A stretch of DNA of 64,000 bases from a plasmid. The notes under the pieces were generated by a model that saw only the letters and a list, made by a program, of their open reading frames with translations, had not been told where the DNA came from and searched no databases. The stretch is from the NCBI RefSeq assembly GCF_988243305.1, contig NZ_OZ547137.1. One strand, 5' to 3'. This document shows, piece by piece, positions 54,998 through 55,402 of the stretch. The translations under genes were made by a program, and so were the position numbers. How positions within the stretch are numbered: the first letter of the stretch is position 1; each line of letters opens with the position of its first letter.

Positions 54998-55402
54998 ATG
55001 TCCAGCGTTAATATTCATTGTCCCCGTTGTCAGTCAGCTCAGGTTTACCGCCATGGTCAGACCCCTAAAGGCCGTGACAGATTTCGCTACCGTGACTGCC
55101 ACCGTGTGTTTCAGCTCACTTATACTTATCAAGCACGTAAGCCGGGTATGAAAGAGCTGATAACTGAAATGGCCTTTAATGAGCCAGGAATGATGCTGGC
55201 CCGGATGGCTCGTTTACATGGAATTCAGCCCTGCCAGTTGTTTAAGTGGAAGAAACAATACCTGGAAGGAACTCTCAATGCTGTTGCTGCTGGTGAAGAC
55301 GTTGTTCCTGCTTCTGAACTGGCCGCTGCGATAAAGCAGATTAATCAGGTTCAGCGTTTACTGGGCAAGAATCTATGGTCCCCACCATTTTTGCAACACT
55401 GA
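54998..55402 (+). CDS. Transposase-like ORF: zinc-finger N-terminus plus IS2-OrfA-like HTH
   Basis: CPRCQ...C..C N-terminus like IS1 InsA; C-terminal ...[35 protein letters not shown] resembles IS2 OrfA. Confidence 0.4.

Follow-up and report, generated by a model that had tools for sequence, protein, structure and literature searches.

How does a single open reading frame (ORF) come to carry the zinc-finger N-terminus of one insertion sequence (IS) family and the helix-turn-helix (HTH) of another, and does it represent a transposase architecture in its own right or the product of an accident between neighboring elements? The question is raised by an ORF of 134 codons in a 64,000-nucleotide stretch of plasmid DNA, hereafter the window, which the preliminary description had regarded as either an uncommon IS3-family architecture or a fusion created by recombination between IS remnants. 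We found the ORF to be a mosaic of three mobile elements and, in all likelihood, a non-functional fusion pseudogene in the IS debris immediately downstream of aggR. The window comes from a pAA-type virulence plasmid of enteroaggregative E. coli (EAEC), and dozens of plasmids that carry aggR, among them pAA of the O104:H4 outbreak strain, match its region 54850-57100 at 99.5-100% identity. Rfam identified antisense-traG, FinP with the traJ 5' UTR and the sok RNA of a hok/sok module at 84-169, 19215-19324 and 23173-23349, and these F-type plasmid RNAs fit an IncF conjugative backbone. Group II intron domains 1-4 were matched at 38711-38997 (-) and domain 5/6 at 48232-48303 (-); the order of the domains does not fit a single intron, indicating that these are probably two separate, possibly partial, introns.

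Domain searches bore out the two-part nature of the encoded protein. In Pfam, Zn_ribbon_InsA matched residues 1-35 (E = 5e-18), HTH_Tnp_IS1 matched residues 42-65 with its first half alone (profile positions 1-24 of 46), and HTH_Tnp_1 (PF01527, IS3-family OrfA) matched residues 61-122 (E = 1.8e-8, profile positions 20-74 of 75). NCBIfam models of the IS1 family also matched the N-terminus, and the NCBIfam model "IS2 repressor TnpA" aligned with residues 55-125 over profile positions 21-90 of 121. The latter score, 90 bits, is far under the cut-off of 229, indicating that the chimera is related to the IS2 repressor TnpA but partial. At the nucleotide level, codons 1-61 are the start of IS1 insA, in agreement with the proposal that the N-terminal ~60 residues are InsA-like, and codons 62-124 derive from codons 28-90 of an IS2-group orfA. 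Codons 125-134 and the stop codon are read from the terminus of an IS110-family element that entered at 55372, so that the last 10 residues of the ORF stem from a third contributor beyond the two originally named. The product has no catalytic domain; of InsA it lacks more than half of the HTH, and of OrfA both the first 27 residues and the end of the coiled coil. In near-identical plasmids, PGAP splits the locus into two pseudogene fragments, which it labels "IS1 family transposase, incomplete" and "transposase, incomplete". The coordinates of all parts of the mosaic are collected in Table 1.

Table 1. Features of the mosaic downstream of aggR, with the guide-like blocks and targets of the IS110-family elements compared (a slash within a target marks the insertion point).
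Feature	Coordinates	Strand	Remarks
aggR	stop at 54897		chimeric ORF begins 100 bp downstream
Predicted AggR-dependent promoter	54903..54940	+	directly downstream of aggR stop
Left 241 bp of ISEc30-like IS1-family element	54941..55181	+	left inverted repeat (GGTGATGCCTCTAATTAGTTGAATCTGATG) and insA codons 1-61
Chimeric ORF	54998..55402	+	134 codons, ATG start, stop included in coordinates
Internal fragment of IS2-group IS3-family element	55182..55371	+	equals ISEc48 nt 116-306, orfA codons 28-90
ISSfl8-like IS110-family element, IS1111-type layout	55372..56719	-	1,348 bp, within orfA
IS110-family transposase	56696..55645	-	frameshifted, 1-nt deletion near 56555
3' non-coding region of IS110-family element, with presumed guide RNA	55372..55644	-	~275 bp after stop codon
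Same orfA, continued past IS110 insertion	56720..56838	+	equals ISEc48 nt 307-427; 89.3% identity; collinear with L016 3616-3807
IS200-type left end, edge of mosaic, after truncated IS3 remnant	56893..57017	+	Rfam STnc490, 140 bits (gathering score 56)
Presumed target sequence of IS110-family element (intact L004 copy)			CCATGGTTTTCTTGCCC
Guide-like blocks, window element			GCAAGAAAA and ATGGTTTT; target CCATGGTT/TTCTTGC
Guide-like blocks, L006 element			AGATGAAA and GGGGATTTT; target GGGGAT/TTTCATCT
Guide-like blocks, L007 element			CAGAAAAAA and GGGTCTTTTT; target GGGTCT/TTTTTTATG

The left part of the mosaic shares 97.5% identity with the first 241 nt of an IS1-family element of 768 bp (L002), 96.7-98.8% with many intact plasmid copies, some of which PGAP names ISEc30, and ~91% with IS1N. 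The remainder of the IS1 (nt 242-768, ~527 bp comprising the frameshift site, insB' and the right repeat) matched nothing in the window. BLAST against complete E. coli genomes indicated that identity switches abruptly from IS1 to IS3 at 55181. From there to 55371, the orfA fragment is 88.5% identical to ISEc48 (L003), an IS2-group member of the IS3 family, and ~76% to IS2, 96.5% identical to an uninterrupted relative (L012), and 97.4% identical to an unfused copy that lies beside aggR in another plasmid, L016. The C-terminal half is thus related to IS2 OrfA but diverged from it, as had been suggested; judged by sequence identity, its closest catalogued parent is ISEc48 and not IS2. The left end of the IS3 copy that contributed to the chimera, including the orfA start (ISEc48 nt 1-115), has been deleted, and IS3 homology stops after 56838, with no orfB and no IS3 terminal repeat at either end. 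What follows the chimera is the IS110-family element, 119 bp more of orfA and then an IS200-type end, with no collinear orfB; a partial IS200/IS605 tnpA adjoins the STnc490 match in the PGAP annotation. Farther downstream, Rfam matched an ALIL frameshift pseudoknot at 57916-58014 (+), within another truncated IS3-family remnant.

The junction itself could be read against both of its parents. The IS1 parent has ...GCC TTT AAT GGT GCC (...TTTAATGGTGCC), the IS3 parent in L012 and L016 has ...ACT ATG GAG CCA GGA (...ACTATGGAGCCAGG), and the window has ...GCC TTT AAT GAG CCA GGA (...TTTAATGAGCCAGG). Codon 61 of insA is therefore joined to codon 28 of orfA with the phase kept, at a point that coincides with no IS end and where the parents share a single nucleotide (G at 55181). 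Microhomology of only 1 nt indicates illegitimate rather than homologous recombination, and homology-driven recombination between the two HTH-coding regions was rejected as an explanation on the same ground.

Of 5,426 complete E. coli genomes, 52 carried this junction at 99% identity or more, as did 38 PLSDB plasmids, and it was identical in all chimeric plasmids; as it recurs across genomes and plasmids, the chimera is not an assembly artefact. The ORF was open in all six near-identical plasmids compared, with copies differing at only 1-3 positions in 405 bp. Among its alleles we observed the amino-acid changes T22N and G64R and, in a protein with 98% identity that covers 100% of the query and represents a cluster of 105 sequences (P0001), A68T; two further proteins correspond to a truncated (P0002) and a frameshifted (P0003) allele of the locus. 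At 55062 (ORF nt 65), the window has C (Thr22), whereas A (Asn22) stands in the parental IS1 and in the six pAA plasmids compared, and a 100.0% match over this stretch was found only in NZ_CP093070.1 (strain BR1220, from a Canada goose). An in-frame join has a chance of 1 in 3 and divergence among the copies is below 1%, so that the intactness of the ORF says little about selection. The frameshifted allele and the amino-acid changes show signs of drift rather than constraint.

Several features suggest that the fusion is expressed. The ribosome-binding site inherited from IS1 is still in place, with GAGG 7 nt ahead of the ATG. Upstream of the IS1 repeat, the sequence reads as an AggR-site-like TGTTTTATATC at 54903-54913, a 21-bp spacer and a -10-like hexamer, CATATT, at 54935-54940. 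This predicted promoter is the orthologue of one predicted for EC042_pAA051 (PMC6392122, Table 1), a "transposase" gene downstream of aggR in strain 042 whose transcript was 4.94 log2 units lower in an aggR mutant by RNA-seq (PMC6392122, Table S2). A generic sigma-70/terminator scan of 54700-55700 returned no more promoter-like sites than shuffled sequence and left the AggR-type promoter unflagged. Together, the IS1 ribosome-binding site and the published predicted AggR-dependent promoter upstream suggest that the chimera is probably transcribed when AggR is active and, since that predicted promoter covers the site, that IS-derived frames located there are likely switched on with the virulence genes. 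Such likely transcription is not evidence of function, and the 042 signal could be read-through from aggR.

An AggR-controlled ORF of this kind could also be read as encoding a small DNA-binding chimera with an effect in trans, for instance by repressing or competing at ISEc48/IS2-group ends. The product would combine the InsA zinc ribbon with a complete OrfA HTH and part of the coiled coil, the part retained being the stretch that aligns with positions 21-90 of the IS2 repressor TnpA model; the frame is intact in 6/6 plasmids, the ribosome-binding site is good, and the predicted AggR-dependent promoter is conserved, with the strong drop of its 042 positional equivalent in the aggR mutant. We nevertheless consider this reading quite improbable. 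Only near-identical copies exist, which makes their conservation uninformative, and among these copies are a frameshift allele and several amino-acid replacements. The coiled coil of IS3-family OrfA proteins is needed for multimerisation, and in the chimera it is truncated, with 10 foreign residues in its place. The 042 RNA-seq signal could reflect a polar effect of the mutation as well as read-through, and AAF/II-type plasmids are without the fusion. Likewise quite improbable is the specific proposal that an AggR-driven 134-aa zinc-ribbon/HTH protein binds ISEc48/IS2-group or IS1 ends and modulates their activity during the EAEC virulence programme; if it were true, the chimera would be a newly born transposition regulator linked to the virulence regulon.

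The interpretation of the ORF as a fusion pseudogene is strengthened by a plasmid that preserves the locus without the fusion. L016 is pRHBSTW-00320_2, an AAF/II-type pAA plasmid, and AAF/II-type plasmids are entirely without the chimera. Its sequence follows that of the window as far as 54941, precisely where the IS1 repeat begins, and then goes on into the start of an IS3 orfA (...ACATATTG AG ATG GCT GAA GTT..., i.e., ATGGCTGAAGTT...). L016 is likewise uninterrupted across the equivalents of 55181 and 55371/56720, at 97.4% and 93.8% identity. Its continuity at both sites makes it an empty site for the IS1 and the IS110 insertions alike, and its state points to an IS1 insertion 3 bp ahead of the orfA start codon, with the deletion coming afterwards. 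The data show directly that the mosaic has three parts, where its breakpoints lie, that empty sites exist and that the fusion is confined to one plasmid lineage.

These comparisons suggest the following history. The start state would have been aggR followed, 43 bp past its stop, by an IS2-group IS3 element with its orfA, the arrangement that survives in L016. An ISEc30-like IS1 would have inserted at 54941, 3 bp upstream of the orfA start codon, giving an intermediate with aggR, a complete ISEc30-like IS1 and then ...AGATGGCTGAAG. A deletion of ~620 bp would have cost the IS1 its right ~527 bp and the IS3 element 83 bp, as far as orfA codon 27; the IS1 target duplication was presumably lost with them. 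This deletion would have fused insA codon 61 to orfA codon 28, in frame by chance. Either before or after the IS1 insertion and deletion, the ISSfl8-like IS110/IS1111 element would have inserted site-specifically between orfA nt 306 and 307, supplying 10 foreign codons and the stop. A search of PLSDB with a synthetic query for the intermediate returned no plasmid combining aggR with a complete IS1 variant and no record covering at least 80% of the query. We infer the order of events, the size of the deletion and its occurrence as a single event.

A second possible ancestor is the arrangement in L004 (pOkiPb01715_1), from which a 927-bp deletion would yield the junction. This plasmid carries a complete IS1 variant (96.7% identity), a 280-bp spacer, and an IS3 element in which the same IS110 element (99.5%) occupies the identical position. 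Its IS3 flanks, however, reach only 78.5-81.8% identity with the window's, which marks them as a different IS3 element, and its IS1 is bounded by a target duplication of its own (8-9 bp) in an unrelated flank. With L016 being a far closer precursor at 97.4% identity, we rejected the L004 arrangement as the ancestor and regard an origin of the junction through it as highly unlikely.

The surroundings of aggR contain further traces of mobile elements. A second ISEc48 copy, internally deleted, lies just upstream of aggR at 53563-53926 (+), where nt 527-850 (95% identity) are joined directly to nt 1239-1279, the right end (100%). This right end, at 53886-53926, is part of that remnant, not of the IS3 copy of the chimera. 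With the ISEc48 remnant upstream and the orfA remnant downstream, aggR has an IS2-group remnant on either side, both oriented alike. Between its stop and the orfA start lie 43 bp (54895-54940) with a weak resemblance to the ISEc48 left end (TGAAAATATGTTTTATATCATTATTT... compared with TGGATATATGTCTAACACTAGTTCT...), and by this resemblance the aggR stop codon may lie inside a degenerate IS3 terminal repeat. In the 60 bp that follow aggR, IS1 elements have inserted independently at least twice, within 14 bp of each other (54898-54941; L014 3842-3870): the ISEc30-like IS1 at 54941 and, 14 bp further on in L014, a canonical IS1 that is also present in the 042 sequence quoted in PMC6392122. The region just after aggR may therefore be a local IS1 hot spot.

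We searched 5.8 billion proteins for relatives of the chimera. Full-length matches were only 98-99% identical copies from the same plasmid lineage, and no independent, diverged full-length homologue of the Zn_ribbon_InsA plus HTH_Tnp_1 architecture was found among them. The remaining matches align to one half of the chimera, with weak alignments of IS1 transposases extending to 81% of the query. They include a normal 231-aa IS1-family transposase that is the same as the first 61 residues of the chimera save residue 22 (P0005), an uninterrupted orfA product 93% identical to the C-terminal half (P0088), and a true ISEc48 OrfA with the same IS110-derived tail (P0009). That the chimera is the natural first gene of an uncommon zinc-ribbon IS3-family or IS1-family element is hardly credible: zinc-ribbon N-termini do occur on several transposase families, NCBIfam gave weak matches to zinc-binding domains of IS1595, IS256 and IS1249, and the fusion point lies directly ahead of the HTH in each parent, at analogous positions, but the nucleotide sequence switches abruptly from IS1 (97.5%) to IS3 at 55181, the IS3 left end, orfB and right end and the IS1 right end are all absent, an unfused orfA stands at the same locus in L016, and the 5.8 billion proteins hold no diverged full-length homologue.

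Of the two origins put forward in the preliminary description, fusion by recombination between IS remnants is thus the one that stands, here as insA joined to an internal piece of the orfA that is still unfused in L016. The uncommon IS3-family architecture does not survive, there being neither orfB nor IS3 ends and only 98-99% identical full-length copies; of the check that had been proposed, for full-length homologues with an intact orfB and terminal inverted repeats, the outcome was that the 5.8 billion proteins hold no independent full-length homologue and that the locus has neither orfB nor IS3 terminal repeats. The N-terminal half does turn out to be the standard N-terminus of a catalogued IS and the rest does not, and this restriction to one half confirms the chimera instead of refuting it. 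The fusion is ordinary transposon debris, which annotation pipelines already treat as two pseudogene fragments. Its wider lesson is that an in-frame deletion between neighboring insertion sequences can mimic a new transposase architecture.

The IS110-family element that ends the ORF is informative in its own right. Pfam DEDD_Tnp_IS110 and Transposase_20 domains identify a DEDD-type transposase, split by a frameshift in the window and intact in L004, and NCBIfam NF033542 (IS110 family RNA-guided transposase) scored 301 bits against a cut-off of 140. We compared copies at 55372-56719 (-) in the window, 3013-4361 in L004, 2947-3156 in L013, 2503-3858 in L006 and 2506-3843 in L007. The window copy is 99.5% identical to the intact L004 copy, from which it differs by the 1-nt deletion, and is dead through the resulting frameshift; identity to the ISSfl8 copy in L006 is 73%. 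Element boundaries were fixed by the uninterrupted target in L016, L012 and ISEc48, relative to which the target AAGAA/AACC is kept with no added bases and no target duplication. Inverted repeats of 13 bp (ATGGTCCCCACCA) are subterminal, 3 and 6 bp from the ends. Subterminal repeats, a downstream non-coding region and insertion without added bases are the criteria of IS1111-type elements (PMC11187229). The same element (99.5% identical) occupies the identical orfA position in three IS2-group hosts, namely that of the window, that of L004 (~80% identical) and true ISEc48 in L013.

Inside an internal loop of the non-coding region, a conserved hairpin has a short variable block on either side. 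When three related elements with three different targets were compared computationally, these guide-like blocks co-varied with the target flanks (Table 1). In the second RNA loop, matches to the donor ends amount to only ~5 nt. Rfam, at gathering thresholds, recognized no family in this non-coding region, its matches elsewhere in the window being only STnc490, ALIL, group II intron pieces and the F-plasmid RNAs. The guide-like blocks would fit RNA-guided (seekRNA/bridge RNA) targeting of the conserved orfA site of IS2-group elements, for which ISEc21, an IS110-type element that targets IS3-family genes, provides a precedent (PMC11187229). The reconstruction as a whole documents repeated IS traffic within 100 bp after aggR, with a putatively RNA-guided IS110-type insertion nearby.

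Comparison with known systems places each part of the mosaic. Relative to InsA of the ISEc30-like IS1, codons 1-61 are the same save residue 22 (T in the chimera, N in P0005), and of an intact IS1-family element the chimera keeps the left inverted repeat, the ribosome-binding site and the insA zinc ribbon, whereas the second half of the HTH and hence a complete InsA HTH, the A6C-type frameshift region, insB' and the right inverted repeat are missing. Relative to the InsC-type repressor OrfA of ISEc48 and IS2, residues 62-124 align with OrfA residues 28-90, and the OrfA HTH_Tnp_1 domain is present with its profile partly covered; the N-terminal 27 residues, the coiled-coil end, the frameshift window, the overlapping orfB (a DDE transposase reached by programmed -1 frameshifting) and the terminal inverted repeats of both ends are lacking, ISEc48 homology spanning only nt 116 to 427. 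EC042_pAA051 on pAA2 of EAEC 042 shares with the chimera its position relative to aggR and its upstream sequence, but in 042-type plasmids the canonical IS1 sits 14 bp further downstream and the shared flank runs into GGTGATGCTGCC, as in L014, making it a separate insertion and not the fusion described here. Finally, the IS110-family element shares with IS1111-type elements that have a seekRNA/bridge RNA (ISEc11), and with ISEc21, a DEDD-type transposase, subterminal repeats, a long non-coding region, insertion without added bases and guide-like blocks that match the target. It differs from them in its target, the conserved orfA site of IS2-group elements, and in that the window copy is frameshifted, and it is at most another member of an already known kind.
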